A stretch of 64,000 nt of DNA from a virus. Its lineage: Duplodnaviria > Caudoviricetes. A program made the position numbers and the translations under genes. Positions within the stretch are counted from its first letter, which is position 1. Each line of letters begins with the position of its first letter. Below are positions 40,884 through 64,000 of the stretch, in pieces. The stretch is taken from IMG/VR virus record IMGVR_UViG_3300044695_006401. The stretch is one strand, 5' to 3'. The notes below the pieces were generated by a model that was not told the DNA's origin, searched no databases, and saw nothing but the letters and a program-made list of their open reading frames with translations.

Positions 40884-42920
40884 ATGATAGAATCCGTAGA
40901 CGAAAACGAAAAACCAAAAAACAAACCTAAAGATAGTTCCTCAAAAACCCCCGTATTAGATAATTTCTCAAGAGATCTAATTAAGGCGGCAGAAGAAGGG
41001 AAGTTGGACCCTGTGATAGGGAGAGAAAACGAGATCAATAGGATTGCTCAAATTTTATCAAGGAGAAAGAAAAACAATCCAATTATTTTAGGGGAACCGG
41101 GTTGTGGTAAAACTGCAATTGTTGAGGGACTTGCAAAAAAGATTTTTGAAGGTGATTGTCCTCAAAATTTAGCAAACAAAAGAATAGTATCGTTAGATAT
41201 GACATCAGTTGTGGCAGGGACAAAATATAGAGGTCAGTTTGAAGAGAGGATGAAGGTTATAATGGAAGAATTATATGGAAATCCCGATATTATAATTTTT
41301 ATTGATGAAATACATACTATGATTGGTGCTGGTAATTCATCAGGTTCTATGGATGCGTCAAACATATTTAAACCCGCACTTTCAAGAGGGGAACTTCAAT
41401 GTATTGGGGCGACAACTTTAGACGAATACAGAAAAAATATTGAGAAGGATGGGGCATTAGAAAGAAGATTCCAAAAAGTTATTGTTGACGCATCAACAAA
41501 AGAAGAAACATTACTAATTCTTCAACAATCCAAAGAAAGTTATGAAAATTACCACAAAGTAATTTATAGTGATGATATTATGAAACTTTGTGTGGAGTTA
41601 GCCGATAGATATATTACTGATCGTGAATTTCCAGATAAGGCATTTGATATTATTGATGAGGTTGGGGCAAGATCTCAAGTGGAAGTAAAACTTCCTGAAA
41701 TTATTGAGGACTTGAAAAAAGAAGCTTTGAAAATCAAAGAAGAAAAGTTAGATGTCATCAACAAACAAAAGTATGAGGAGGCGGCTAATTTACGAGACAA
41801 AGAAAGAAAAGTTCTTGCCGAATTAGAAAATGAGAAACAAAAATTCGAAAAGAATCGTGACATGTTTAAAAGAGAAGTGACTGAAGATGTCGTTTATGAT
41901 GTAGTTTCTTTAATGACAAAAATTCCTGTGAATAAAATATCTACAGATGAAACACAACAACTTATTTCTTTAAAAGAAAATTTGAACACAAAAGTTATTG
42001 GTCAGGATGATGCTGTAAGTAAAATAGCAAGGGCAATTCAGAGAAATAAAGTTGGTTTAAACGATCCGAAAAAACCTATTTTCAGTGGTCTGTTAATTGG
42101 TAATTCGGGAGTCGGGAAAACAGAACTCGCAAAACAATTGGCAAAACATATGTTTAACAGTGAAGACGCTTTAATCCGTTTAGACATGAGTGAGTTTTCA
42201 GATAAAATTTCAACATCCAAATTGACGGGAACATCACCAGGTTATGTGGGGTTTGAAGAGGGCTCACCATTTTTGAATAAAATCAAAAACAAGCCATACT
42301 CTGTAATTCTATTAGATGAAATAGAAAAGGCACATTCCGATATATTCAATGTTTTTTTACAGATGTTGGATGAGGGTATGTTAACAGACGGTCATGGGAG
42401 AAAAATAAATTTTAAAAATTGTATTATTCTAATGACTTCTAATGTGGGAACTAAGGTTGTACAAGATTTTGGGACGGGTGTCGGTTTTTCAACAACGGCA
42501 AAAACTGAAAGAAAAGACGATGAGATCAAAACACTTTTGGAAAAAGAGCTATTCAAAAAATTCCCGCCTGAGTTTATCAATAGATTTGATGATATAGTTT
42601 ATTTCAAAGACCTTAATAAAGAGGATTTGTTAAAAATTGTTGATTTAGAACTTAATAAATTCTACGAAAGAATTTCTAAGTTAGAGTTTTCTGTAGATGT
42701 CGATGAGACACTAAAAAAACATCTAATAGAAGTCGGAATGGATACTCGTTTTGGGGCTAGAATACTTAAAAGAACCGTACAGAAATGGATTGATGATGCA
42801 ATCACTGAAAAAATCCTTACAGATAACCCAGAAAAAGGATCAAAGTTTGTTCTTACTTATAACGAGAAGGAAAAGAAAACTGATGTTAAAATAAAAAAAC
42901 CAATTAAAAGAAAAAAATAA
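40884..42920 (+). CDS. clpC: ClpC-type AAA+ unfoldase lacking the Clp_N domain
   Basis: Two NBDs ([14 protein letters not shown]; [17 protein letters not shown]), pore loops KYRG and GYVG, short UVR-type M domain ([13 protein letters not shown]), ClpP-docking VGF loop; NBD1 begins about 20 aa after the start. Confidence 0.9.
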
Positions 42921-42921
42921 T

Positions 42922-42952
42922 TTTGCAAATGTTAAAAACTTTTGTACATTTG
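42922..42952 (+). promoter_or_regulatory. Bacteroidota primary-sigma promoter
   Basis: TTTG(42922-42925)-N19-TACATTTG(42945-42952). Confidence 0.75.
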
Positions 42953-42965
42953 TAAAAAAACAGCA

Positions 42966-44018
42966 ATGAACATAGAAAAATTTAAAGAGCTCCTTTCAGT
43001 CCCAAGCAAGACATATCAAGAAGAAGATATGGTAGAGTTTATTTGTGACGAGTTGGGGGATATGGAAGGGGTTACTTTCTATCGTGATGTAATGATGAAC
43101 ATCTACGCGACAAAAGGTGTGTTAGAGGAAGGTGAATTTTACCCTATGTTTATTGCTCACACAGATACAGTACACAGTAAGATTGAAAAAATAGTAGTTA
43201 AAGAAGAAAAACTTGCTCGACCTTACACTTTTGGTAAATCCTTTGACAACACACCAGTTGATGTATTAAAGGCTTATGACACTAACGGTAACCCAACAGG
43301 TATTGGTGGTGATGACAAGTGTGGTATTTTTATTTGTTTAGAGTTACTAAAACAATTAGACAAAGTAAAAATTGGTTTTTTTGTTTCAGAAGAAACAGGA
43401 TGTCACGGTTCATCAAAATGTGATGAAAACTTTTTACAGAATGTTGGTTATATCACTCAATATGACGCACCTGGTAATCACTTAATTACCGAGATTTGCT
43501 CGGGAGTTCGTTTGTTTGAAAGGGAGAGTGAGTTCTTTGAAAAAACATTAGAAGTTATTACGGAATCTTTTGGTAATGAAATGTTAGTTCAATCTCACCC
43601 TTACACCGACATTTCACAACTAAAAAAGAAAATCAATGTTTCTTGCATTAACATGTCTTGTGGTTATTACAATATGCACTCAGTTCAAGAGTTTGTATCC
43701 TTAGACGATGTAAAAAATGCGATTGAAGCAGGAAAGAAGATGGTTGCAGTATTGGGACTTAAAAAATACACATACGAATATGCTCCTATCAAATATACTC
43801 CTCAATTAATAATGAATTCACTTGTGGAAGATTTAGATGAAGAAGTTTTTGATTACCCTGAAGAAACTTTTCATCGTTTAGGGAGTATAGACGCATATGA
43901 AGAAAAAGATGGTATCACATTAAGTGACGCTTATGACGATGGATTTTTATTTATCCCCGATGAGGATTTAGTAAGTCTTTATGAAATTATTAAAGAAAGA
44001 TTGATTAAAAAGTATTAA
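42966..44018 (+). CDS. M28/M20-like zinc metallopeptidase
   Basis: AHTDTVH, GGDDKCG, SEETG, QYD, GYYNMH. The track start at 42942 lies in the promoter; ATG 42966 preferred. Confidence 0.82.
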   Translation: MNIEKFKELLSVPSKTYQEEDMVEFICDELGDMEGVTFYRDVMMNIYATKGVLEEGEFYPMFIAHTDTVHSKIEKIVVKEEKLARPYTFGKSFDNTPVDVLKAYDTNGNPTGIGGDDKCGIFICLELLKQLDKVKIGFFVSEETGCHGSSKCDENFLQNVGYITQYDAPGNHLITEICSGVRLFERESEFFEKTLEVITESFGNEMLVQSHPYTDISQLKKKINVSCINMSCGYYNMHSVQEFVSLDDVKNAIEAGKKMVAVLGLKKYTYEYAPIKYTPQLIMNSLVEDLDEEVFDYPEETFHRLGSIDAYEEKDGITLSDAYDDGFLFIPDEDLVSLYEIIKERLIKKY

Positions 44019-50592: not shown

Positions 50593-51522
50593 CTAAATCA
50601 ATTCTATTACCTTATTATAAACTTGAATTACCGATGGGTGACATTCAAAAGTTTCTTTTCTTTCTAAACAACCCACTAAAGATGGGACCCCTTGTATTGT
50701 ACCCCATTCTCTAACCCCGTATTTAACATCCGACGCACAATTTAATCCACAACCACCTCTAACATAATGATATTTATATTCTTGGGATCCGTGTCTGTAT
50801 GGTGATCTAAATTCAGGATTTATTGAACTTCCTAATTGTAATATTTCGCAATCTGTAGTCCCTGCCAAATGTAAAAGACCTGAATCCATTGTTACAAAAC
50901 AAGAACAGTTATTTAATAAATGCCAAGTCTGATCTAAACTTGTTTGATTCATCAAGTTATAACCAATTTTAATTGGGAAATTAAAAATAGGTTTGTCAAC
51001 ATTTGAACCACCTAATTCAGAAGAATCTTTACCTACGGAAATAACATAAATTCCTTTTTCATTTAATAACTGAGTTAACATTTGCCAATTTTTTGCAGTC
51101 CAAGTTCTCGAATCCCAATTTTGTACAGGATGGATTAAAACATATTTTTTTGGTAAATCAGGGAGGATAACATCTCTTGGGAAATAATCTAAAGTCATTT
51201 CATCTTTATTTAACATAAACCCTAAAGAGATCGCATGAAACTGTCTTATATCCATGGCATTATGTTTATTACATATACCATCAGATTTATATGAAATATC
51301 AAATGTATTAATTACATGGTACATTTCTTTTAATTGATCCTGATTTGTAGAACCATCAAAAATATTTTCCACATATGGATTTGATTGAAATAACTCAGGT
51401 ATGTTAGTTATTATAGATATTTTTTTACCATAAGAATTATATAGTTTTTTAATTGTTGGTGTCGAGCATAGTGTGTCCCCTAATGCTCTACAACCAGTTA
51501 TATCTAAACATATTTCTTTCAC
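50593..51522 (-). CDS. GT9-like (heptosyltransferase-fold) glycosyltransferase
   Basis: RALGDTL, YVLIHP, FVTMDSGLLHLAG, C-terminal Cys cluster. Confidence 0.78.
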   Translation of the reverse strand: MKEICLDITGCRALGDTLCSTPTIKKLYNSYGKKISIITNIPELFQSNPYVENIFDGSTNQDQLKEMYHVINTFDISYKSDGICNKHNAMDIRQFHAISLGFMLNKDEMTLDYFPRDVILPDLPKKYVLIHPVQNWDSRTWTAKNWQMLTQLLNEKGIYVISVGKDSSELGGSNVDKPIFNFPIKIGYNLMNQTSLDQTWHLLNNCSCFVTMDSGLLHLAGTTDCEILQLGSSINPEFRSPYRHGSQEYKYHYVRGGCGLNCASDVKYGVREWGTIQGVPSLVGCLERKETFECHPSVIQVYNKVIELI

Positions 51523-51574
51523 ATTATAAGAATAAGATACTTCACAATTAAAATCTATATTTTATTTTTTTACT

Positions 51575-54511
51575 ATGGAAAAAATTACACTTCTTTATTT
51601 AACTCCCCACCTTTCAACAGGAGGGATGCCACAGTTTGTACTCAAAAGAATCGAGTCTCTTAAAAAACATTCAGATAAAATTGAAATAGTAGTTGTTGAA
51701 TATTCACAATTTAGTGACACATATGTTGTACAAAGAAACAAAATCATAAATCTAATTGGTCAACACAACTTTTATAGTTTAGGTGATACTACAGATACAC
51801 AAAAAAAGTATGATTTAATAAAAATCATAAAAGATAGAAATATTGATATTGTTCACGCAGAAGAGATACCTGAGGCGTTCGAAAGTTTTAATAGGATACC
51901 TATAGATCTTTTGAATAAACTTTATGATAATTTTAGAACTTGGAAAATTGTTGAGACATGTCACAATGTTTGGTTTGATGCAAATAACAAAAAGAAACTA
52001 CATCCTGATTATTATTGTTTAGTTACGCCGTATCATGAAAAAGTATCGTTTAATCAAACGATATCACCAAAAAAACTTTTAATGTTCCCATACGAAGATA
52101 AAGTAAAACCAATTTTAGAGGAACTTGAAATATATTATGAAGATCACAGAATTCCACTATTAAAAAAAATGACCGAAAGAACTAATTTGGGAATCGACCC
52201 AACGAAGACACATATTTTAAATGTTGGTCTTTGGACGGAAGGTAAAAATCAAAAAGAGGGTATTGAGGTGGCAAGACTTTTACAGGATTCACACCCAAAC
52301 TTACATTTCCATTTTGTTGGAAATCAAGCACCTAACTTCGAAAACTATTGGGGTCCTATCATGAATAATTTACCCAAAAATGTTACAGTTTGGGGAGAAA
52401 GAAATGATGTGGACTCATTTATGATGTCTTGTGATGTTCTCATGTTTAATTCGACATGGGAATGTAATCCACTTGTAGTAAGAGAAGCGGTCAACTATGG
52501 AATGAAAATTTTAACAAGAAATTTACCACAATACATGGGAATGTTTGATAACTACATTACTAGTATTGCAAATGAAGACACATTTGAAAGTATTTCCGAA
52601 AAATTAGTTTCAGTCATTAATTCAGAAAGTTCTTATAAAATTGAAAGTGGTTATGATTTTGGTGATGAGTTAATGTCATTTTATACTGAAGTTAAAAACA
52701 CACCACATATGGGGAATCAACCAATAAAAAATGATTATACGGTTAACCAACATTTTGTTGTAAATCCATACATTGAAATTTTAGGTGATTCAACAAATGA
52801 CATGGAAATATCGGTTTATGATAATCAAAATAATGAGTTGGTGTACACAAACAAATTACCAATAAAACATTGGGTAAAATTAAATCGTGAATATTTCACA
52901 GAATGGAGAACCGAAATAAAAGAAAATGGTGAAACATTTTATTTTGATATTTTGAGTTTAAAAAATAGAAGAGTTTATATTTCATTTGGGTCCAAATCTT
53001 TGGGTGACACAATGGCTTGGATCCCTTATTGCGAAGAGTTCAGAAAAAAACATAATTGCCATTTGATTGCATCAACATTTATGAATGAGCTATTTGTTGA
53101 TCAGTATTCCGAAATAGAATTTGTAAAACCTGGTGATTCAGTTAATAACATCTATGCACAATATAGATTAGGTTGGTTCTATAATGAAGATGGGACCTTC
53201 AATTCAAATGTACATAAAAATGATATTCGAAGACAGCCACTTCAAAAAACAGCAACAGATATATTGGGGTTAGATTATATTGAAATCAGACCAAACCTTA
53301 ATCTACCAAAAGTTGAAAAAAGAAAAAAGGTTGGTATAGGATTTCATTCCACGGCACAATCAAAGTATTGGAACAACCCGAATGGATGGCAAGAAGTTGT
53401 AGATTATTTAAATAATTTGGGGTATGAGTGTATGATATACTCAAGAGAAGGTGATGGTTACATGGGTAATAATTACCCAAAAGGCGTAACAATCTATAAA
53501 GGTGGAAACTTACAAGAAGTGATTAATGATTTATCTACATGTGAGTTTTTTATAGGTTTAGGTTCAGGATTAAGTTGGTTGGCTTGGGCTTGTGAATTAC
53601 CTGTGGTTTTAATCTCAGGGTTTAGTGAAAAATGGGCGGAAACAACTTTAGATACTTACAGAGTTATTAACGAAAATGTTTGTCATGGATGTTTTAATTC
53701 AGAAAGATTAGATGCGGGTGATTGGAACTGGTGTCCGTTACATAAAAATACAGACAGAATGTTTGAGTGTACCAAAAGAATAAGCTCCGATATGGTAGTA
53801 AAAGAAATAAATAAAATAATAAATAAAGAAGTGGTTGAAGAAAGAAAAAATAAATTAGAAGGATTTGATTGGGGTGGAAAAGATAATTGGTATGTTGACG
53901 CAACAATTGAAGAAATGGGTTATGGTAATATGTACGATAGATTTTTTACGGTTGAGGAAAATGATGTTGTTGTAGACTTAGGGGGGTCTTTAGGTCCGTT
54001 CACATATTCAATTCTCCCTAATAACCCAAAACAGTGTTATGTTGTTGAACCCCTAAATTCTCAAGTTGAGGTTATCAAAAAAAATCTTAATAAACCTAAT
54101 GTAAAAATTATTAGAGGTGCAATTACAGATAAAAAACATCTAACAATCACTTGGGACGATGTTTCTGAAAATGTACCAACATTTACATTTAAAGAGTTCT
54201 TAGAGGAAAATAATATAAACCATATTGATTTCTTAAAATGTGATTGTGAGGGAGGGGAATACGATGTATTTCAACCAAGTAATATTGAGTTTTTAAAAAC
54301 CATACCAAAAATTGTAACTGAATTCCATATGAGGGTTAATGAGAATTTTCATAACTGTAAGTTCAGATGGTTTAGAGATAATATACTACCACAATTTAAT
54401 AACTATCAAGTTTTTTCTGTTGATGGTGTTGATATTAAATGGGATTTATGGAATGACCATTTCTTGGATTGGTATTGTGAAGTAATAATTTATATAGACA
54501 ATAGAAACTAA
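51575..54511 (+). CDS. tri-domain protein: GT4-like, Aah/TibC-like protein O-heptosyltransferase, FkbM-like methyltransferase
   Basis: N-terminal STGGMPQ...STWECNPLVVREA; middle SKSLGDTMAW...GLGSGLSWLAWA...VCHGCFN...WCPLH...FEC; C-terminal VVDLGG...IDFLKCDCEGGE. Confidence 0.8.
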   Translation: MEKITLLYLTPHLSTGGMPQFVLKRIESLKKHSDKIEIVVVEYSQFSDTYVVQRNKIINLIGQHNFYSLGDTTDTQKKYDLIKIIKDRNIDIVHAEEIPEAFESFNRIPIDLLNKLYDNFRTWKIVETCHNVWFDANNKKKLHPDYYCLVTPYHEKVSFNQTISPKKLLMFPYEDKVKPILEELEIYYEDHRIPLLKKMTERTNLGIDPTKTHILNVGLWTEGKNQKEGIEVARLLQDSHPNLHFHFVGNQAPNFENYWGPIMNNLPKNVTVWGERNDVDSFMMSCDVLMFNSTWECNPLVVREAVNYGMKILTRNLPQYMGMFDNYITSIANEDTFESISEKLVSVINSESSYKIESGYDFGDELMSFYTEVKNTPHMGNQPIKNDYTVNQHFVVNPYIEILGDSTNDMEISVYDNQNNELVYTNKLPIKHWVKLNREYFTEWRTEIKENGETFYFDILSLKNRRVYISFGSKSLGDTMAWIPYCEEFRKKHNCHLIASTFMNELFVDQYSEIEFVKPGDSVNNIYAQYRLGWFYNEDGTFNSNVHKNDIRRQPLQKTATDILGLDYIEIRPNLNLPKVEKRKKVGIGFHSTAQSKYWNNPNGWQEVVDYLNNLGYECMIYSREGDGYMGNNYPKGVTIYKGGNLQEVINDLSTCEFFIGLGSGLSWLAWACELPVVLISGFSEKWAETTLDTYRVINENVCHGCFNSERLDAGDWNWCPLHKNTDRMFECTKRISSDMVVKEINKIINKEVVEERKNKLEGFDWGGKDNWYVDATIEEMGYGNMYDRFFTVEENDVVVDLGGSLGPFTYSILPNNPKQCYVVEPLNSQVEVIKKNLNKPNVKIIRGAITDKKHLTITWDDVSENVPTFTFKEFLEENNINHIDFLKCDCEGGEYDVFQPSNIEFLKTIPKIVTEFHMRVNENFHNCKFRWFRDNILPQFNNYQVFSVDGVDIKWDLWNDHFLDWYCEVIIYIDNRN

Positions 54512-55098
54512 TGGAATTTAAGGAAAACAAAATAGACCCGCAAAATTATTATTGGTATCAAAATGGGTTTAGTAAGGAAGAATTAATCAAAGTACATGAA
54601 GGTGTTTCTAATTTACCATTCAGTGAAGCCACTGTTTTTGGAAATGATAATCCTGAGATAATTAAAAAAATTAGAAGTTCGTCCGTTAAGTGGATACCAA
54701 AAACAGATGAGTGGATGTGGTTATATGAAAAACTACTCGACATGGCGAGCACCGCAAACAGAGAGGTTTGGAAGTTTAATCTGATATCAGCTCCCGAGTT
54801 AATTCAGTATACCGAATATTATGACACCGCAGGTGGTCATTATGATTGGCATCAAGATATTGGGCCCGGTATCGGATCAAGTAGAAAGGTTTCTTTGACC
54901 GTTCAACTTTCAGATCCAAGTGAGTATGATGGTGGAGATTTACAGTTATGGAGAGGTGGTGACGATGTTGTTAACGCCGAAAAAGGTGCTGGAGTTGTTT
55001 TTATTTTTCCAAGTTACATGATGCATAGAGTAACCCAAGTGACCAAAGGTACTAGAAGAAGTTTTGTGTTATGGGTTGGTGGTGACCACTATAGATAA
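54511..55098 (+). CDS. 2OG-Fe(II) oxygenase (prolyl-4-hydroxylase/PKHD-like)
   Basis: HYDWHQD (HxD), RKVSLTVQL, YDGGDL, HRVTQVTKGTRRS. Confidence 0.88.
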   Translation: MEFKENKIDPQNYYWYQNGFSKEELIKVHEGVSNLPFSEATVFGNDNPEIIKKIRSSSVKWIPKTDEWMWLYEKLLDMASTANREVWKFNLISAPELIQYTEYYDTAGGHYDWHQDIGPGIGSSRKVSLTVQLSDPSEYDGGDLQLWRGGDDVVNAEKGAGVVFIFPSYMMHRVTQVTKGTRRSFVLWVGGDHYR

Positions 55099-56291
55099 GA
55101 TGAAATTTCTTTTGATTTAAGTATATTGTCCTCTATTGAACAATATGTCCACTCACCGTACCTACCTATTGAAAATATATTTTTTGGGTTGTGTTTTTCA
55201 CACCATCGATTGTAAGTATTTTTTGAGTCATTAGTTATATGCACATATGCGGGGTTCATGATTAGAAATTGGTGGTCGACAAGTTTATGATCGGATATGA
55301 CATTTGTCTTCCTTAAATCATTAAGTACGGTGTCAAGTAAATCAATCTCGTCAACTAAATCATCTTTTTCCAAACCAATCTCAACATACAAACTCAATTT
55401 TTCCTGACCTAAAATATTGTTATAGAAACCAACCCTATAAAAAACCTCTTCATTTGGGTAATATCTCCAATGAGTTTTTATGTCAGAACCTTTATCAAAA
55501 CCTAAATTAAAAACCGCAACTTTATTGGCCGATAAATTATATCTTTGTTTTGTTAAATCTAATAATTTATTTAATGGTAGAGTACTAACTAATTTGTTGA
55601 ATCTTATGTCTCCGATATTTGTTCTAACAATTTTATTAGATAAGTCTATATCTATAACATTAGTATTTAATTGTATTTTACTTTGATCAACCCTCTTTAA
55701 TATAGATTTGATGTATTCATAACTACCATTTATTGGATAAATAAATGTGTCATTGTAACTTATATTAATATTTTCTTGTGGTGGTTTTGGAAAAAATCTA
55801 CCCATGGAATCAAACTCGAGTTGGTTAAGATCACAAGCATATAATTTTTCATTGTAGGGTATAATAAACTTATCACAAATACCATTCCCTAAAGTTGTTC
55901 TAACATAATTCTTAAATGTAGATCTATCTTCAGGTCCACAATTTTTAAGGTCAGTTAGGCACTCGTCATATTCTTCTTTATTAAGTTGGGATATGTTGTG
56001 TTGGAAAGGAAAATTAATAATCTTACCTTGATAATCAATGTCGGTTATTTTATTAACCTCTAACAATTCACAATCAATTTCAGATAAAACATAGTTTTTA
56101 ATTTCTTCATTTCTAAAATGAAAAAAATGTCCCGAATAATCCCATACATAATCACCTCTGATTGTTGTTTTACAATAACCACCTAACTCATTATCTTTCT
56201 CTATGATTAGATAATCTTTCCCATTTAAAAAAGACGCTAAGGATAAACCAGTCACACCACCACCAATAATAAGAATATCAGTTTGTTTCAT
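55089..56291 (-). CDS. FAD-dependent oxidoreductase, UDP-galactopyranose mutase/PPOX-like
   Basis: IIGGGVTGLS, ELGGYCKT, DYSGHFFH, GRYGEWTY. Confidence 0.72.
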   Translation of the reverse strand: MKQTDILIIGGGVTGLSLASFLNGKDYLIIEKDNELGGYCKTTIRGDYVWDYSGHFFHFRNEEIKNYVLSEIDCELLEVNKITDIDYQGKIINFPFQHNISQLNKEEYDECLTDLKNCGPEDRSTFKNYVRTTLGNGICDKFIIPYNEKLYACDLNQLEFDSMGRFFPKPPQENINISYNDTFIYPINGSYEYIKSILKRVDQSKIQLNTNVIDIDLSNKIVRTNIGDIRFNKLVSTLPLNKLLDLTKQRYNLSANKVAVFNLGFDKGSDIKTHWRYYPNEEVFYRVGFYNNILGQEKLSLYVEIGLEKDDLVDEIDLLDTVLNDLRKTNVISDHKLVDHQFLIMNPAYVHITNDSKNTYNRWCEKHNPKNIFSIGRYGEWTYCSIEDNILKSKEISSYL

Positions 56292-57423
56292 TAATAGTAA
56301 TTTTTTCCATAAAGAAGTTATAGTTTGTGGTTAACCTATCTTTGTGACCCTCAAATAACGGATCGTTAATAATGTTGTTTAACAAATATAAACCTTCATC
56401 ATATCTCTGAGTCCAATAACAAGAAACCGATAACTCATCATTAACATAATTATTATACGAGGTGTCATCCACAAATAGTATATATTTCTTTTTTACATCC
56501 TCAAGGGAAAGATTTTTGGCAATTTTCAAATGTTTGTAACCCATCTCAAAGTCACCAATCTGATTAAAATATAAACCTATTTTATAGTGTGGTTCGGCTC
56601 TGTCCGAAAATATATTAATAGCCCTTAACATTTCGTTATATATTTTTTCTCGATCAAAATTTAATTTCATCATACATATTGAAATTCTCATCTGAGACTC
56701 AAACAATTCTTCCACCCAAGCGTCTTTTAAGTTGGTATATAGTTTGTTCCACTTTAACGCTTCTTCAAACATACCATAGTCCATAAAACTTTGGGCCGCG
56801 TAGAATACGGATCTATAATTCAAACCATCAGGATCGTCAATCAAAGTATCCCAAAATTGTTTTTGGAGTCTTTCAGCGTCGTAATAATATTTCTTAGGGT
56901 CAAAGGCTCTTGACCCAACACCATCCGCAATCACATAACCACGATTGGATAAATCACCAGTCGTGTAATGGTCTTTATCTAAACATTTAATTATTGTGTG
57001 TGCAACGCCACAGAATTTCCACCTTAATCTGTTGTTGTAAATTACGGTTGCCTTCCATGTTGAGGTTCCTCGTTTCATCATCATGAAATAATTGTCATAA
57101 CCAACATCATCAAACCCAAAAGAAAAGTCACCTGCTAAAATATCATCAGCATCTAAATGTAAAACATAATCAGTTTTATCAAAAACATATTCCATCATCA
57201 TGTTTTTGTTTTTATCAAAACCAAACCACTCATCACGATGAATTTCACCAGGTATACCTGTACGATCCATGAACTCTTGTACAATATCTAATGTTCTATC
57301 AGTCGATCCGTTATCGGCAACAACCAAATAATCTATATATGGTGCAACCGCATCTAATACGGTTCCGATGATGTGTTCTTCATTTTTACACATCGTAGCA
57401 AATGCTAATGTTGGTCTATTCAT
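56278..57423 (-). CDS. GT2 glycosyltransferase with a C-terminal TPR-like region
   Basis: MCKNEEHII...DNGSTDRT...LHLDADD; helical C-terminus RSVFYAAQS...RAEPHY. Confidence 0.8.
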   Translation of the reverse strand: MNRPTLAFATMCKNEEHIIGTVLDAVAPYIDYLVVADNGSTDRTLDIVQEFMDRTGIPGEIHRDEWFGFDKNKNMMMEYVFDKTDYVLHLDADDILAGDFSFGFDDVGYDNYFMMMKRGTSTWKATVIYNNRLRWKFCGVAHTIIKCLDKDHYTTGDLSNRGYVIADGVGSRAFDPKKYYYDAERLQKQFWDTLIDDPDGLNYRSVFYAAQSFMDYGMFEEALKWNKLYTNLKDAWVEELFESQMRISICMMKLNFDREKIYNEMLRAINIFSDRAEPHYKIGLYFNQIGDFEMGYKHLKIAKNLSLEDVKKKYILFVDDTSYNNYVNDELSVSCYWTQRYDEGLYLLNNIINDPLFEGHKDRLTTNYNFFMEKITINETN

Positions 57424-58666
57424 AAATTTTGTTTAATATTTCTTCTTCTTGATAATATTTTTTGGTGTAGATCATGTTCTGAAATTTCTGAGAGTGTCCT
57501 ACCGAATCATCCCAATTCCAATCTTTTTTACCTAACTCTAATATTCTATTGTGTATTTGATTATCATAAAAATCTCTAATCAGTCTTGATCTACGATTAA
57601 TATCTACTGAGTTATTATCCACAGTACTATTTCTATCGTTCCATTGTAGATATAACATCTTTTTAATGTGTACTATTTCAGTATTTAAAAATGTTCTAAC
57701 AATCAATTCATAATCATCCGCAACGGGTGTATGAGTATTGTGACCTCCGATCTTATCATACACTCCTTTTTTCCAAACCCTAACATGATTTGGCATACTA
57801 ATATTAAACCTAATTGTGAGGGGATTAATATCGGGATAATGATGATTAATATATGTTTTTCCATCGACCTCCACATAAGTGTGACCTGCATACCCAAAGT
57901 CAAAATAGTTATCGTGTCTGGCATACCAATTACCTGAATAGTCATGATCATAAGTTTTCATCTCACCATCTTCATAAAGTTCACACACATCACTATACAT
58001 AAAACCAGCATTTGGAAACTGTAAACTTGCTTTATGACATTCCTCTAAACATGTTGAAATTAATGTATCATCATGATCTAACTCAACTAACCATTCACCA
58101 TTACAAAGTGATGTCGCTCGATGTTTAACCAAACCAATATTACCGTTACTTTGGGGTAATATGCGGTGTATCTTCACTCTAAAATCTTTTTCAGATATAT
58201 CTTTTATAATATTCCAAGTCGTACCATCATTTGAATCATCAACAATAACCCATTCCCAATCATCGACGGTTTGATTTTTTATACTTTCATAAGTTCTGAT
58301 TATTTTTCTACCTGTTTGAAAAGTTGGTGTGAAGATTGAAAACTTAGGTCTAATATTTTGACAATTTCTAAATGTTGATTGGCATACAACATCATTTGCT
58401 AAAATATTGTCGGGTGGAAAACTTAAATATCTAATTATTCTATTCGAAATAATTTTATTATTTGAGGAAACTCTGTTGTCGCAACCCATGATAATATCAG
58501 GTTGGTAAACCGAAAAATCTTTAATTATATCATCGCTAAAAGGTAATGAATAAATTATAACTTCCTCTAAAAGATTTTCTTCATAATATACATCAGATGT
58601 TAGAGTGAATGTACCTAACTCCCTCCAACCATAAACGATCGCGGATGGTTTTTTTGTTTTCATCAT
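57416..58666 (-). CDS. GT2 glycosyltransferase with an extra N-terminal region
   Basis: FSIFTPTF, EWVIVDDS, VELDHDD, ADDYELIVR. Confidence 0.82.
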   Translation of the reverse strand: MMKTKKPSAIVYGWRELGTFTLTSDVYYEENLLEEVIIYSLPFSDDIIKDFSVYQPDIIMGCDNRVSSNNKIISNRIIRYLSFPPDNILANDVVCQSTFRNCQNIRPKFSIFTPTFQTGRKIIRTYESIKNQTVDDWEWVIVDDSNDGTTWNIIKDISEKDFRVKIHRILPQSNGNIGLVKHRATSLCNGEWLVELDHDDTLISTCLEECHKASLQFPNAGFMYSDVCELYEDGEMKTYDHDYSGNWYARHDNYFDFGYAGHTYVEVDGKTYINHHYPDINPLTIRFNISMPNHVRVWKKGVYDKIGGHNTHTPVADDYELIVRTFLNTEIVHIKKMLYLQWNDRNSTVDNNSVDINRRSRLIRDFYDNQIHNRILELGKKDWNWDDSVGHSQKFQNMIYTKKYYQEEEILNKIYE

Positions 58667-59247
58667 TTTTCAGTATCAAAAAAGAATGTTTGAAATAAAC
58701 GGCCATCATAAATGTCTTGACCAAAATAATCCAAGGAAATGTGAAAATGATCACCCCTATAAAGAACCAAACGATTATAAACATTTCCAATTCTATCAAC
58801 TAATTCCCATTTAGTCATGTCTTGTGAATCTTTATATATTTGATTTAATATATCCATATTATAGGATCCGTCCTCATTTTTAGGTGCCATTGTTAGACCT
58901 GTTGGTTTATGTTTAAATAAACCAGTGCCTGAACTTAGTGGAGCATCTGGGGTTAAATAACATACTCCAGCCCATTTAGTTGTTTGATCTGCGTGGATCC
59001 AACTACGATCTTTAGATGTTGTAAATTGGTATGACCCTGTATATTGTTCTTCAGACCAATAAGTTACTTTTCCATAATATGGGAATACAACAGATTCTAT
59101 AACATCTTTCATAGAATCGTTTAAAAAAGATTTGGTTCTCCTACCTGGATAATTACCACTTACAGGGTAATCTTGCTGTAGTGCGAACTTTCTAACTTCA
59201 TCAACATCTGAGTAAAAGTCATCAATAATATAAGTGGATATTTGCAT
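58663..59247 (-). CDS. DUF6445-like 2OG-Fe(II) oxygenase-fold protein
   Basis: IIDDFYSD...GNYPGRRT...WIHAD...WAGVCYL...SGT...YNRLVLY...FH. Confidence 0.68.
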   Translation of the reverse strand: MQISTYIIDDFYSDVDEVRKFALQQDYPVSGNYPGRRTKSFLNDSMKDVIESVVFPYYGKVTYWSEEQYTGSYQFTTSKDRSWIHADQTTKWAGVCYLTPDAPLSSGTGLFKHKPTGLTMAPKNEDGSYNMDILNQIYKDSQDMTKWELVDRIGNVYNRLVLYRGDHFHISLDYFGQDIYDGRLFQTFFFDTEK

Positions 59248-59293: not shown

Positions 59294-59746
59294 TTAACAA
59301 GGACCTTGATAAACTAAAGTAGATCCATTCCATTGGTAACAATCGTTCCCATCTGAATAAAATCCACTTGGTGCTGGAGTAGTACATTGATCCTCATCAA
59401 ATATTCCAGTGGCAAATGCTAATAAACATGGGTCATCCTGACAAGTTCGTTTCAAATAAACACTTCTTATATCATTACACTCACAAGACTTTCTACAATC
59501 ATCTCTGTCAAAACATAAGTTAGCAGGACAACAGTCAGGTACACATGTAGGTGTTGGAGTAGGTGTTGGTCTTGGAGTAGGTGTTGGTCCTCCAGGTGTT
59601 GGTGTTGGTGTTGGTGTTGGGGTAGGTGTTGGACAAAATGGGTTGTCATCCCAAAATTTTATATCTCCACCAGCACCCGCTAATAAATTATTAACCGCAT
59701 TTATATTACCACATAATACATCATTAAGTTTAGTTATATTACCCAT
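59294..59746 (-). CDS. Cys-rich protein with a Pro-Thr linker
   Basis: 150 aa; PTPTPT run, then CVPDCCPANLC...C..SCEC...C...C...C...C...C. Confidence 0.7.
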   Translation of the reverse strand: MGNITKLNDVLCGNINAVNNLLAGAGGDIKFWDDNPFCPTPTPTPTPTPTPGGPTPTPRPTPTPTPTCVPDCCPANLCFDRDDCRKSCECNDIRSVYLKRTCQDDPCLLAFATGIFDEDQCTTPAPSGFYSDGNDCYQWNGSTLVYQGPC

Positions 59747-59753
59747 ATTAACA

Positions 59754-62700
59754 TCATACTAATTCAATCCAATCTTGTGAAGGATTAAAGTAAATTATAT
59801 CAGCTGAAATCGCATAACCAACAACTCTTACTATGTCACTAGTGCCCGATGGTTGAGTGGATGTTATATCTCCATCGGTAGTTGATAAATACAACACTTG
59901 ACCTGGAGTCCAGTTCCATGCCGATCTATATGCATAACCTCGTAACATCATACCCGAGTTGAATTGAACACCTATCGCCATTCCAAGTAGACCCTGAGCG
60001 GTTGCAGAACTATCAGCATCCGCAAGTGCCCATGCTGAACCACTTGTCCAATAGTATACATTATATTTAGTTGAGGTTCCGCTACCACCAAATGTTACAA
60101 GTTCGCCATAATAATCATCGATAGTCATGAGTGTGGTCGGATCAGTCGCTAATCTCCATTCACCCTCTAATAAGGTTGTTGAACTAGTATTAGCTCTAAA
60201 CAAGTTAGCACCTGTATTAATGGTAAAGGCGGCACTTGAGTTCGCTGAATTCGATGTACCGTTTGCAACTAAAATATTATTAGCAGTAGTTGGAGAAATT
60301 GATGTAAATCCTGCACCTTGGGCCCCTTGTGCCCCCTGTGGACCAGGACCTCCCGTTGCACCTTGAGCCCCTTGGGCTCCAGTTGCCCCTAATCCCGCAG
60401 GTCCAGTTGGTCCTTGTGCTCCTTGAGGTCCAGGTCCGCCTGTCGCTCCTTGTGCTCCTTGAGGTCCAGGACCGCCTGTAGCTCCTTGTGCTCCTTGAGG
60501 TCCAGGACCACCTGTTGCTCCTTGAGCTCCGGTCGCTCCTTGGGCACCTTGAGGTCCAGGTCCGCCTGTTGCTCCTTGTGCACCTTGAGGTCCAGGTCCG
60601 CCTGTTGCTCCTTGGGCACCTTGAGGTCCAGGTCCGCCTGTTGCTCCTTGAGCTCCGGTCGCTCCTTGTGCACCTTGAGGTCCAGGTCCGCCTGTTGCTC
60701 CTTGTGCTCCGGTTGCTCCTTGTGCTCCGTTAACTCCGCTAGTTCCATTTGTTCCTGAAGTACCAGCAGCACCTTGTGCTCCGGTTGCTCCTTGTGCTCC
60801 AGTTGCTCCTTGTGCTCCGGTTGCTCCTTGTGCTCCGTTAACGCCTGAAGTACCTCTCGTACCGCTAGTTCCATTTGTTCCTGAAGTACCAGCGGCCCCT
60901 TGTGCTCCGGTTGCTCCTTGTGCTCCAGTTGCTCCTTGTGCTCCGTTAACTCCGCTAGTTCCATTTGTTCCTGAAGTACCAGCGGCCCCTTGTGCTCCGG
61001 TTGCTCCTTGTGCTCCAGTTGCTCCTTGTGCTCCGTTAACTCCGCTAGTTCCATTTGTTCCTGAAGTGCCAGCGGCTCCTTGTGCTCCAGTTGCACCTTG
61101 TGCTCCAGTCGCTCCTTGTGCTCCGTTAACTCCGCTAGTTCCATTTGTTCCTGAAGTGCCAGCAGCTCCTTGTGCTCCAGTTGCACCTTGTGCTCCGGTT
61201 GCTCCTTGTGCTCCGGTTGCTCCTTGTGCTCCGTTAACTCCGCTAGTTCCATTTGTTCCTGAAGTACCAGCAGCACCTTGTGCTCCGGTTGCTCCTTGTG
61301 CTCCAGTTGCTCCTTGTGCTCCGGTTGCTCCTTGTGCTCCGTTAACGCCTGAAGTACCTCTCGTACCGCTAGTTCCATTTGTTCCTGAAGTACCAGCGGC
61401 CCCTTGTGCTCCGGTTGCTCCTTGTGCTCCAGTTGCTCCTTGTGCTCCGTTAACTCCGCTAGTTCCATTTGTTCCTGAAGTACCAGCGGCCCCTTGTGCT
61501 CCGGTTGCTCCTTGTGCTCCAGTTGCTCCTTGTGCTCCGTTAACTCCGCTAGTTCCATTTGTTCCTGAAGTGCCAGCGGCTCCTTGTGCTCCAGTTGCAC
61601 CTTGTGCTCCAGTCGCTCCTTGTGCTCCGTTAACTCCGCTAGTTCCATTTGTTCCTGAAGTACCAGCGGCTCCTTGTGCTCCAGTTGCTCCTTGTGCTCC
61701 GTTAACACCTGATGTTCCTCTCGTACCGCTAGTACCGTTTGTTCCTGAAGTCCCATTCGTTCCATTTGTACCTGACGTTCCGTTAGTCCCGTTTGTTCCA
61801 TTTGTCCCGTTAGTACCTGACGTACCATTTGTTCCGCTAGTACCGTTTGTTCCTGACGTTCCATTTGTACCGTTTGTACCTGAAGTACCATTGGTTCCAC
61901 TTGTGCCGTTAGTTCCGTTAGTACCTGAAGTTCCATTTGTACCATTTGTTCCCGAAGTTCCGTTAGTTCCTGATGTGCCATTTGTTCCTGATGTTCCATT
62001 TGTACCACTTGTGCCGTTTGTTCCTGATGTTCCATTAGTACCATTGGTACCTGATGTTCCGTTTGTACCATTCGTCCCATTAGTTCCTGACGTTCCGTTT
62101 GTGCCATTCGTTCCTGATGTACCTCTTGTACCTGACGTACCGTTTGTTCCATTCGTTCCGCTAGTACCATTTGTTCCTGAAGTTCCGTTGGTTCCATTAG
62201 TCCCCGATGTTCCATTGGTTCCGTTGGTACCTGATGTGCCATTAGTTCCATTTGTTCCTGATGTTCCGTTTGTACCATTAGTACCTGAAGTGCCGGCAGC
62301 ACCTTGAGCTCCCTGAGGTCCAGTTGGTCCTTGTGCTCCCTGAGGTCCAGTCGCGCCTTGTGCTCCAACCGCACCTTGAGCTCCCTGAGGTCCAGTTGCG
62401 CCTTGTGCTCCGTTTACTCCTGATGTACCATTAGTACCTGAAGTACCCGCAGCCCCTTGAGCTCCTTGTGGTCCAGTCGCCCCTTGAGCGCCTTGTGGTC
62501 CAGTGGCACCTTGTGCCCCATTTACTCCTGATGTTCCGTTTGTCCCCGATGTACCATTTGTACCATTAAGACCACTTACTCCCGAAGTACCATTAGTTCC
62601 TGATGTACCATTAGTTCCGTTCGTACCTGAAGTCCCATTAGTACCATTAGTTCCCGAAGTTCCGTTTGTTCCATTAGTTCCTGATGTTCCTCTTGTCCCT

Positions 62701-64000
62701 GAAGTTCCATTGGTTCCTGAAGTGCCGTTTGTTCCACTAGTACCATTTGTACCATTAGTTCCTGATGTTCCGTTTGTTCCACTAGTACCATTTGTTCCAC
62801 TAGTACCATTTGTACCTGAAGTACCATTTGTCCCATTCGTTCCGCTAGTTCCGTTAGTTCCATTAGTACCGCTAGTTCCGTTCGTTCCTGATGTACCGTT
62901 TGTACCATTAGTTCCGTTAGTTCCTGAAGTTCCATTTGTACCGTTTGTTCCACTTGTACCATTTGTCCCCGAAGTCCCGTTGGTTCCATTAGTTCCTGAT
63001 GTTCCTCGTGTCCCTGATGTTCCATTCGTTCCGCTAGTACCGTTAGTTCCCGATGTTCCATTAGTACCGTTGGTGCCACTTGAACCATTCGTTCCCGATG
63101 TTCCATTAGTACCGCTCGTACCGTTAGTACCATTCGTTCCACTAGTACCGTTAGTTCCCGAAGTACCGTTAGTACCTGAAGTCCCATTAGTTCCATTTGT
63201 TCCTGAAGTACCATTAGTACCGTTTGTACCTGAAGTACCATTAGTTCCACTTGACCCGTTTGTCCCTGAAGTACCATTTGTCCCACTAGTTCCATTTGTT
63301 CCTGATGTACCATTGGTTCCATTTGTTCCCGATGTACCGTTTGTACCTGATGTTCCATTAGTTCCTGAAGTACCATTCGTGCCTGAGGTTCCATTTGTTC
63401 CGTTAGTTCCGCTTGTACCATTAGTCCCGTTTGTGCCTGATGTTCCATTAGTTCCGCTTGTACCATTAGTCCCGTTAGTACCATTTGTACCGGATGTTCC
63501 TCTTGTGCCAGAAGTCCCGTTCGTTCCGCTAGTACCGTTTGTACCATTCGTTCCTGAAGTTCCATTTGTGCCTGATGTGCCGTTAGTTCCATTGGTTCCC
63601 GAAGTTCCATTAGTACCTGAAGTACCATTTGTCCCGTTTGTACCGCTAGTACCATTAGTTCCCGATGTTCCATTAGTACCATTCGTACCTGAGGTTCCAT
63701 TTACACCACTTGTTCCATTTGTTCCGTTTGTACCAGAAGTCCCATTAGTTCCACTTGTACCGTTGGTTCCACTTGAACCATTTGTTCCTGAAGTCCCGTT
63801 GGTACCATTTGTTCCTGAAGTCCCGTTGGTACCATTTGTTCCGTTAGTTCCTGATGTTCCATTCGTTCCGCTAGTACCGTTAGTTCCATTAGTACCTGAT
63901 GTTCCGTTAGTACCACTCGTACCATTTGTACCGTTAGTTCCTGAAGTTCCATTAGTACCGCTTGTTCCGTTAGTTCCTGAAGTACCATTCGTGCCTGAGG
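59754..64000 (-). CDS. giant Gly-X-Y (collagen-like) fibre protein, 5'-truncated, more than 1414 aa
   Basis: One frame (codon starts at 63998 ... 60203) gave no stop in my reading until 59754. [15 protein letters not shown] triplets lead into a ~185-aa globular C-terminus. The track shows only the tail (TTG 60203) and shadow frames. Confidence 0.88.
60318..63995. repeat. 9-bp-periodic coding repeat array with higher-order blocks
   Basis: 63995 to 60396 is exactly 3600 nt (400 triplets), then a 2-residue GL break and 8 more triplets. Near-identical higher-order blocks occur at 60.4-61.7 kb. Confidence 0.9.

Follow-up and report, generated by a model that had tools for sequence, protein, structure and literature searches.

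A gene for a putative O-glycosylated collagen-type fibre with about 890 Gly-X-Y triplets in an uncultured freshwater phage

Collagen-like phage fibres, glycosylated collagen-like hairs (BclA), and virus-encoded modification of collagen (Mimivirus) are already known. The known triple helices rely on hydroxyproline or, in bacteria, on networks of charged and polar residues, and the helix of type I collagen comprises 338 triplets. The rod of BclA counts tens of GPT triplets (Pro at X, Thr at Y); its Thr residues are heavily O-glycosylated by dedicated, nearby-encoded enzymes, and it forms a hair-like nap on the surface. SPP1 gp12 is tiny. BclA is found in the exosporium of Bacillus anthracis/cereus, with BclA1-3 in C. 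difficile, as collagen-like, O-glycosylated surface hairs (PMC8968730). SPP1 gp12 is a collagen-like capsid binder (PMC7602432). The known phage collagens, which include the collagen-like tail fibres of phages and prophages (P-SSM2 orf28 and the E. coli O157 prophage proteins; 'Bacteriophage collagen', Smith et al. 1998), are short (PMC8968730). Mimivirus encodes collagen-like fibril proteins together with the hydroxylase/glycosyltransferase L230 (cited in PMC8968730). In the TibC-TibA and Aah-AIDA-I systems, a cytoplasmic enzyme is encoded beside a highly repetitive Ser/Thr-rich surface fibre or adhesin, and in phi29 gp8.5 a cement-type base is joined to a long trimeric fibre. The window analyzed here is a 64,000-nucleotide stretch of viral DNA (Duplodnaviria; Caudoviricetes; IMG/VR record IMGVR_UViG_3300044695_006401), at the end of which the minus strand carries part of a gene for a putative fibre protein with a very long Gly-X-Y shaft.

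The best explanation of this gene, and one we consider reasonably probable, is a trimeric, O-glycosylated collagen-type virion fibre for long-range host capture. Like BclA, the predicted protein combines a Thr-rich Gly-X-Y rod with a trimeric beta-sandwich knob at one end; unlike BclA, it has ~890 triplets whose X position is Thr and whose Y position is Asn or Ser, is almost Pro-free, bears the knob N-terminally and a cement-like domain at the other end, is accompanied by a candidate enzyme of the TibC type, and is owned by a phage. Compared with the known phage collagens, the shaft is about ten-fold or more longer and nearly Pro- and charge-free, and its gene is paired with that of a putative protein O-glycosyltransferase and mis-annotated by automatic calling. 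The phage enzyme differs from TibC and Aah in its presumed substrate, which is collagen-type and not a beta-helix, and in the fusion of its Aah/TibC domain between a GT1-type and an FkbM domain. In phi29 gp8.5 the base is N-terminal and the fibre is a helical supercoil, whereas here the cement-type domain is C-terminal and the shaft is collagen-type. The Mimivirus system modifies hydroxylysine, unlike this essentially Lys-free shaft, and belongs to a eukaryotic giant virus with other enzyme families. The gene stands out by its scale, by lacking nearly all of both stabilisers, by a C-terminal domain of the cement type, by its conserved pairing with a TibC-type enzyme, and by the systematic mis-annotation.

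Translation of the minus strand at 59754-63998 gave 1414 residues, stop-free until the terminal TGA. The parts of the gene found in the window are listed below.

60387..63995, minus strand: main Gly-X-Y array of 401 triplets (translation, triplet count, PF01391)
63995 down to ~61630, minus strand: part dominated by GTN/GTS (layout)
62295-62519, minus strand: small GAQ/GAT/GPQ island within the GTN/GTS part (layout)
61628 to 60728, minus strand: GAQ/GAT blocks alternating with GTS/GTN/GVN spacers (layout)
60387-60728, minus strand: final Pro-containing GGP-GPQ-GAQ block, adjoining the globular C-terminus (layout)
60309..60389, minus strand: one-residue Gly-Leu-Gly break, then 9 triplets in shifted register; end of the shaft (translation)
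60150..60308, minus strand: 53-residue neck joining the shaft to the C-terminal domain (modelled with low confidence as a monomer; motif kept in the relatives L024 and L025)
59757..60149, minus strand: C-terminal domain of 131 residues (predicted structure, structural comparison)
59754-59756, minus strand: stop codon of the fibre gene (translation)

Gly occupies each third position in 401 triplets in a row (residues 2-1204; 60387-63995), which agrees with the first-pass annotation, where at least 400 consecutive triplets over 3600 nt had been read from the letters, with GTN/GTS upstream and GAQ/GAT/GPQ near the globular C-terminus. The triplets of the window part are mainly GTN (140), GTS (112), GAQ (51), GAT (36), and GVN (14), followed by GPQ and GAA (12 each) and GTR and GGP (7 each). 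X is Thr in ~73% of the triplets, and Y is mostly Asn or Ser. The GTS/GTN/GVN spacers comprise four triplets, and six at two places. The Pro-poor composition noted earlier was recovered: the main run contains 22 Pro and 7 Arg, and neither acidic residues nor Lys. Nearly all of the 22 Pro sit in the last block preceding the C-terminal part (neck and C-terminal domain, 184 aa), and Pro clusters in the final 38 triplets of the main array and the 9 triplets after the break, adjoining the C-terminal domain. The same Gly-Leu-Gly break was found in L014, L015, and L018 (L numbers denote metagenome or viral contigs compared with the window). Three segments matched the Pfam Collagen family PF01391 with E-values of 3.6e-68, 4.7e-63, and 2.6e-61 (cut-off of 27.2 bits). 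The overall G+C content of the window is ~31% but rises to 47-53% over the last 4 kb because of the Gly, Thr, Ala, and Pro codons; otherwise, the codon choice of the fibre gene matches the preferences of the phage.

The gene continues beyond the window, as had been proposed. The small gene downstream of it (59294-59746) is identical on many metagenome contigs, several of which end within the repeat. Contigs L013 and L016 extend 5.5-6.5 kb into the repeat, with at least 548 and at least 659 unbroken triplets, respectively, and the gene-strand bases 1-2357 of the window are 100% identical to L016:2882-5238. The gene start is reached by L019 and L020, which were found via a look-up of one protein predicted in a shadow frame. 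An ATG at L019:4111 is followed by a globular N-terminal domain of 107 residues and then by 882 unbroken triplets. By overlap arithmetic, the L019 form comprises 2,961 aa, and the window form ~3,033 aa, provided that its upstream part matches L016 and L019. As reconstructed from these sequences, the gene is ~8.9-9.1 kb long and encodes a predicted protein of ~2,960-3,030 aa, and the window carries the 3' 4.2 kb. At 0.286 nm per residue, taken as the established collagen value, 891 triplets would measure ~764 nm if wound into a collagen helix, so that the earlier estimate of ~340 nm for the window part was conservative as to the whole shaft of ~890 triplets, which has ~2.6 times the triplet number of type I collagen. 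The 2,770 residues read from L019 include 26 Pro, 16 Arg, 6 Asp, 3 Lys, and 1 Glu. The known helix stabilisers, imino acids in X and Y and many charged pairs, are not what this sequence offers, a result that bears on the stability of the helix and not on the repeat itself.

The gene is real: it has an open frame, an ATG start, in-frame conserved domains at both ends, and a synonymous bias. The alternative, in which misassembly of repeats inflates or chimerises the array, or a pseudogene is decaying, is considered very improbable. Neither stops nor frameshifts occur in the window or over ~8.9 kb in six independent contigs. Among haplotypes, 47-93% of the substitutions are synonymous in the Gly-X-Y frame versus 0-25% in the other two sense frames, a concentration at wobble positions that argues against a dead gene; this test cannot separate the coding frame from one antisense frame sharing its wobble position, and that antisense frame is broken by stops. 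The GTN/GTS part holds little exact repetition: its unit copies are only ~65-70% alike in DNA, the 140 GTN triplets are written with 25 different nine-base words, and the longest exact repeats in two sampled stretches are 39 and 83 nt. The GTN/GTS array proved identical in independent assemblies, with the number of GAQ/GAT blocks alone differing; L020 and L021, from other samples or projects, are 100% identical to L019 over 11,405 and 4,547 nt, respectively. Some observations speak for an assembly artefact. The GAQ/GAT block region, in which exact repeats of at least 200 nt are present, differs among assemblies by 558, 423, and ~216 nt, and the short contigs of public runs break up inside the array. 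In-frame indels of 18 and 27 nt were also found among assemblies in the GTN/GTS part. Every length difference is a multiple of 9 nt, and complete genes of like design occur in relatives, both of which count against an artefact. The suggestion that the repeat blocks allow length variation was supported as far as these differences go; in the GAQ/GAT region they may reflect either true variation or short-read collapse. The Logan contigs of four lake runs gave short pieces, none of which spans the array, and left the copy number undecided; many of the joints reported from them have sides of 21-32 letters and are probably repeats or related genes.

The protein is hidden from gene callers, as the first-pass annotation had stated. 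Its claim that only shadow frames are reported holds for the public gene calls on L013, L016, and L019, in which shadow frames are chosen and the true protein is reduced to a 124-aa C-terminal piece; the default list of open reading frames for the window omits the Gly-X-Y frame solely because the frame runs off the window, and includes it once open ends are allowed. The spurious shadow-frame proteins on L013, L016, L019, and L020 (e.g., 992, 605, and 527 aa) are rich in Met, Glu, Leu, Gln, and His, and such products are on record in the protein collection. A word-based protein search with the long query detected no close full-length relative, the best match being 50% identical over the tip; the probable reason is that the true frame is absent from gene predictions. 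In IMG/VR, no exact match to a 45-mer of the C-terminal domain was found. Since spurious shadow-frame proteins are substituted by callers, protein databases both miss this family and hold false entries. Repeat-aware gene calling would recover many such genes, as runs of up to 861 triplets were seen in 20-kb viral loci.

Relatives with the same end domains were found on L024 and L025, where the genes are complete and encode proteins of 1,311 and 1,335 aa with 334 and 342 triplets, respectively; a further relative on L023 has at least 770 triplets. The triplets of these relatives are GSS/GTS/GNS/GSA, without Pro. Judged by sequence, the conserved feature is Gly at every third position with hydroxyl-rich X and Y, and not the Asn-Gly-Thr sequon. 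In three contigs, the fibre gene has another collagen-like gene immediately upstream.

L019:3-4001 (beyond the window end): second collagen-like gene
L024:4754-9895: second collagen-like gene, 1,713 aa
L023:1621-9894: second collagen-like gene, complete, 2,757 aa, with 854 unbroken triplets

The C-terminal domain of this upstream protein differs from that of the fibre, and a mid-shaft globular domain is present in the L019 and L024 copies. Unbroken runs of 400-861 triplets were also observed within 10 kb of a TibC-like enzyme in at least 12 distinct viral contigs (L092-L160). Genes even longer than the fibre gene probably exist, because several runs end only at the locus edge.

The C-terminal domain was modelled with a predicted local distance difference test score (pLDDT) above 90 over the last 130 residues. 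In an exhaustive structural comparison with 48,161 chains, only 34 reached Z >=2, and nearly all of the top 29 were trimeric capsid cement or decoration proteins. The best matches were Adjutor (Z 9.6, root-mean-square deviation 2.9, 112 aligned residues), HFTV1 (9.2), and Pam3 (9.1), and others were Patience, XM1, BB1, TW1, the phi29 head-fibre base (gp8.5), and lambda gpD. The remaining matches comprised herpesvirus triplex proteins and a C-terminal fragment of phi29 gp12 (Z 6.2, identity ~10%). A Foldseek search of the PDB returned only weak E-values for this domain, with a list that agrees with the exhaustive comparison. The model thus places the domain in the beta-tulip-type fold of trimeric cement proteins. 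Phage_cement_2 (PF09956) was matched by 9 of 40 aligned members of the domain family (best E-value 1.5e-5); the domain of the window itself matched no Pfam cement model, and searches of Pfam and PHROGs with the C-terminal part brought no informative match. With the C-terminus of a protein annotated as tail fibre in Flavobacterium phage immuto, the domain shares 45% identity. Its family comprises at least 7,461 cluster representatives at E-values up to 0.001, is without its own Pfam model, and is nearly always located at the C-terminus, in proteins of widely differing length. Some proteins were observed to carry two or three copies, in N-terminal, internal, and C-terminal positions.

The N-terminal domain (107 aa) was modelled as a beta-sandwich (pLDDT 90). 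Its matches lie well above background (Z 8.6-12.8) and are trimeric spike knobs and docking domains, including the C-terminal domain of a tailspike depolymerase (Z 12.8), the docking domains of CBA120 TSP4 (10.2), a Klebsiella phage baseplate protein (9.6), and the distal knob of the Pa223 capsid spike (9.2). The fold is that of the N-terminal docking module in CBA120 TSP4 and T4 gp9/gp10. By fold, the shaft is therefore flanked by a trimerisation domain at both ends.

Enzymes that may act on the fibre are encoded next to it, at 50593-58666.

50593..51522, minus strand: second enzyme of the GT9 family (heptosyltransferase-like), 309 aa (scores well under every curated family threshold)
51575..54511, plus strand: TibC-like three-domain enzyme, 978 aa (TIGR04414, TibC structures)
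54511..55098, plus strand: 2-oxoglutarate-Fe(II) oxygenase of the PKHD/PiuC type, PF13640 (Pfam)
55089..56291, minus strand: UDP-galactopyranose-mutase (UGM)-like flavoenzyme (E-value 5e-20 to solved UGMs)
56278..58666, minus strand: two family-2 glycosyltransferases (GT2), 416 aa and 381 aa (profile matches)

The gene of the 978-aa enzyme is located ~5 kb from the fibre gene. Its product contains a GT1/GT4-type glycosyltransferase domain (~aa 190-380), an Aah/TibC domain (aa 409-748), and an FkbM methyltransferase domain (aa 798-918). It scored 270.8 bits against the NCBIfam equivalog TIGR04414 (cut-off of 200, E-value 1.7e-80) and matched the TibC structures 4rap/4rb4 with an E-value of 7e-66. 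All residues of the C-terminal four-Cys cluster of TibC (C339, C342, C358, and C370, counted from the alignment) are aligned in it. The L024 orthologue is 56% identical, is encoded beside homologous fibre genes, and keeps the four Cys. A run of at least 20 triplets was found within 10 kb of 49 of the 80 TibC-like viral loci versus 6 of the 75 control phage structural loci. After de-replication, a run of at least 50 triplets within 10 kb was present in 22 of 26 informative clusters versus 3 of 75 control loci; the lineages are related and form one broad clade, so that this is conserved synteny over 61-81% enzyme identity and not independent co-occurrence, a limit to be set among the objections below. 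The enzyme is a candidate initiator of fibre O-glycosylation. Because an enzyme above the Aah/TibC threshold adjoins the gene and the synteny with long Gly-X-Y genes is kept, O-glycosylation appears to be the likeliest modification of the Ser/Thr-rich shaft; heptose transfer to the fibre, that is, both the donor and the acceptor of the enzyme, is a prediction. The earlier proposal that the GTN/GTS part may need glycosylation thereby gained circumstantial support, from the Aah/TibC-family enzyme, the glycosyltransferases, and the UGM-like enzyme adjoining the gene and from the synteny in many lineages. The second GT2 (56278-57423, minus strand) shows a faint similarity to the SunS family of peptide S-glycosyltransferases (E-value 4.5e-5, far below the cut-off) and possibly has a HAD-phosphatase-like C-terminal part. 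Prolyl hydroxylation was rejected as the main stabiliser, given only ~26 Pro and an oxygenase of the PKHD/PiuC type.

Taking as observed the gene with its frame and length, the folds of its domains, the family of the enzyme, and the synteny, a triple helix, glycosylation of the fibre, its presence in virions, and its polarity would fit together as follows. The C-terminal trimer would register three chains, and the helix would nucleate in the adjoining GGP-GPQ-GAQ block, the only Pro-bearing part. Zipping towards the N-terminus would then yield a collagen-type triple helix of ~0.76 micrometre. Fibrillar collagens nucleate at the C-terminal end, and the position of the Pro-richest triplets beside the C-terminal domain fits such C-to-N zipper folding. 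T4 fibritin foldon, the phi29 gp12 chaperone, and the C-propeptide/GPO run of fibrillar collagen are alike in that the trimeriser adjoins the most helix-prone part of the rod; no sign of self-cleavage or ATP dependence was seen for this fibre. The folding direction is suggested by the arrangement of the protein and by analogy with these C-terminal nuclei. The X and Y residues face outward in a triple helix, and the exposed Thr and Ser would be O-glycosylated in the cytoplasm, with the Aah/TibC-family domain of the neighbour enzyme making the start. Elaboration could be carried out by the other glycosyltransferases, the mutase-like enzyme supplying galactofuranose, and the methyltransferase domain. 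BclA and the cuticle collagen of vent worms gain helix stability from glycosylated Thr, and here the sugar coat would substitute for hydroxyproline and charge pairs as the helix stabiliser. The finished fibre would be a virion appendage for long-range host capture.

Several points weigh against this proposal, in addition to the relatedness of the lineages. The fibre, the helix, and the sugar are predictions from genes. In host-guest peptides, Thr at X and Asn or Ser at Y rank with the less favourable triple-helix residues, and the unmodified helix may be unstable for this reason. No Gly-X-Y gene accompanies the enzyme in the two most distant TibC-like groups (54-57% identity). To our knowledge, TibC-type enzymes are known to act on the beta-helical repeats of autotransporters, not on collagen, and our literature search found no paper linking them with phage collagen-like proteins. 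No heptose-nucleotide pathway was seen among the scanned phage genes, and the number of GAQ/GAT blocks is uncertain in short-read assemblies. The combined picture of a ~0.8-micrometre phage collagen held by glycans without imino acids or charge pairs, started by a TibC-type enzyme, spread clade-wide in lake phages, and missed by standard gene calling is put forward as a tentative and still doubtful one.

The same composition could be read differently, with a shaft that is not a triple helix but an antiparallel polyglycine-II bundle, as in the snow-flea antifreeze protein and phage S16 gp38, or an extended mucin-like glycopolymer that lacks a defined helix. With Pro below 1% and charged residues at ~1% of 2,770 residues, the two known triple-helix stabilisers are those thereby missing from the shaft, and the dense Ser/Thr beside glycosyltransferase genes recalls mucin-type regions. 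A disordered glycopolymer would need no Gly period, whereas 882 triplets pass here without one interruption and the relatives keep Gly-X-Y and swap the X and Y residues (GSS/GTS/GNS). In polyglycine-II bundles, two of every three positions must be small (Gly/Ala) and the short helices must be joined by regular turn segments; the shaft carries Thr at X with Asn or Ser at Y, and its 882 triplets show no periodic breaks. Both terminal domains, moreover, have folds known as trimers. A shaft of either kind is rather improbable, and the polyglycine-II bundles raised by the first-pass annotation were set aside as the less likely structure on account of the bulky Thr and Asn/Ser, the absent turn segments, and the trimer folds at the ends. 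N-glycosylation as the key modification, with a cytoplasmic N-glycosyltransferase acting on hundreds of Asn-Gly-Thr/Ser sequons, is improbable. The 442 N-x-S/T sequons in the 2,770 residues of L019 and the 146 in the window part would provide for it, with almost all Asn residues falling in Asn-Gly-Thr/Ser, but such sequons arise automatically wherever GT comes after GTN. The close relatives use GSS/GTS/GNS/GSA, with Asn rare and mostly outside sequons, and the conserved neighbour enzyme belongs to an O-glycosylating family. No HMW1C (GT41)-type enzyme was detected among the scanned genes, a weak negative since only part of the genes of the phage was covered. N-glycosylation at N-G-T sequons was set aside as the sequon is not kept in relatives, and a glycosylated, trimeric collagen-type shaft remains the preferred structure.

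As to the attachment of this collagen-type fibre, an N-terminal docking-type knob on the tail, baseplate, or neck with the C-terminal knob distal is favoured, at a probability close to an even one but short of it. The immuto homologue is located in a tail module, a stand-alone member of the C-terminal domain family lies on L012 ~7 kb from the capsid gene, and among viral structures the nearest belong to long proteins that bear the names tail-fibre-like or Mtd-N-domain. The use of the N-terminal domain fold for N-terminal docking in CBA120 TSP4 and T4 gp9/gp10 also speaks for this polarity. The fibre gene itself is placed ~31 kb from the gp23-type capsid gene, outside a head module. Attachment to the capsid via the cement-like C-terminal domain is possible but less likely, and other arrangements make up the remainder. 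In such a head fibre, a trimer of the C-terminal domain would sit on (quasi-)three-fold sites of the capsid with the rod outward and the N-terminal knob as a distal adhesin, like phi29 gp8.5 or the Pa223 capsid spike with the chain polarity reversed. Two conflicts of polarity speak for it and against docking by the N-terminus. The fold of the C-terminal domain is that of capsid-binding proteins, its top 29 matches being nearly all cement or decoration proteins, herpesvirus triplex proteins, or the phi29 head-fibre base, with Phage_cement_2 reached by 9 of the 40 family members. Sequence relatives of the N-terminal domain stand at the extreme C-terminus, presumably distal, of ~60 other phage proteins, which suggests a distal knob; they are N-terminal only in close relatives of the fibre gene, and by fold the N-terminal domain also resembles the distal knob on the capsid spike of Pa223 and the depolymerase C-terminal domain. 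On the other side, the C-terminal domain of the window reaches no Pfam cement model, its family occurs in tail modules or far from the capsid gene and in tail-fibre-like proteins, sometimes in tandem copies within one protein, and phi29 gp12, a tail appendage, has the same fold in its C-terminal fragment (Z 6.2). Beta-tulip proteins grip the capsid mainly via an N-terminal arm (PMC7602432), and here the collagen rod is on that side. The immuto papers found contain no description of its fibres.

If the proposed glycosylated fibre is confirmed, a glycan-based third way to stabilise collagen and a new substrate class for TibC/Aah enzymes would be added, and these O-heptosyltransferases would extend from enterobacterial autotransporters into phages. 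A Gly-Thr-Asn/Gly-Thr-Ser shaft of ~2,670 residues would show either that a sugar coat alone suffices or that another structure with Gly at every third position exists. A fibre several times the virion length would alter the physics of host encounter in dilute lake water.

Two further genes lie between the GT2 genes and the fibre gene.

58663..59247, minus strand: DUF6445 protein, PF20043 (Pfam), in the same transcription direction as the fibre gene
59294..59746, minus strand: small partner gene, 150 aa, starting 7 nt past the fibre stop codon (conserved on contigs)

In the 150-aa partner, the first 40 aa are conserved, a (Thr-Pro)n linker that varies in length comes next, and the C-terminal domain is rich in Cys; in L024, the fibre gene is likewise followed by a homologue (L024:13920-14549), whose linker is longer. 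Pfam and PHROGs gave nothing useful for it, and it is unrelated to the gene following the immuto tail fibre. Judging by its sequence, the protein seems to be a partner in the virion or outside the cell and is a likely target for glycosylation. The role of a tail-fibre chaperone was rejected, as the Cys-rich, linker-bearing design looks extracellular. The DUF6445 protein matched PHROG 1644, labelled 'minor coat protein' (E-value 4e-31), and no solved structure by sequence. This label may be unreliable, or the protein may be another virion protein of the fibre module.

The window contains a T4-type gene set encoding the major capsid protein (PF07068, 1e-71), portal (PF07230, 5e-77), large terminase (PF03237, 5e-12), and prohead protease (PF03420, 7e-22). 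The nearest deposited capsid proteins are 42-46% identical and belong to an uncultured 484-kb phage, Microcystis phage Mel-JY01, and Flavobacterium phage immuto. The stretch was present in 24 public runs, all labelled lake water metagenome, and no RNA data were listed among the runs containing it. By these sequence data, the source is an uncultured freshwater T4-like large phage. The gp23-type capsid protein (27145-28971, minus strand) comprises 608 aa, of which relatives and the Pfam model match two pieces, about half of the length, suggesting a large extra segment or insertion. At 1-20257 on the plus strand, genes were found for a GDP-mannose 4,6-dehydratase, epimerases, a DegT aminotransferase, an asparagine-synthase-like amidotransferase, and GT2, GT11, and NodZ-like proteins; PhoH, dUTPase, and exonuclease genes are interspersed in this run of sugar genes, and a heptose pathway was not seen there. 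The region 40884-44018 (plus strand) encodes a ClpB-like double AAA+ ATPase (678 aa) followed by a peptidase of the M20/M42 family, both of which are unusual phage cargo.

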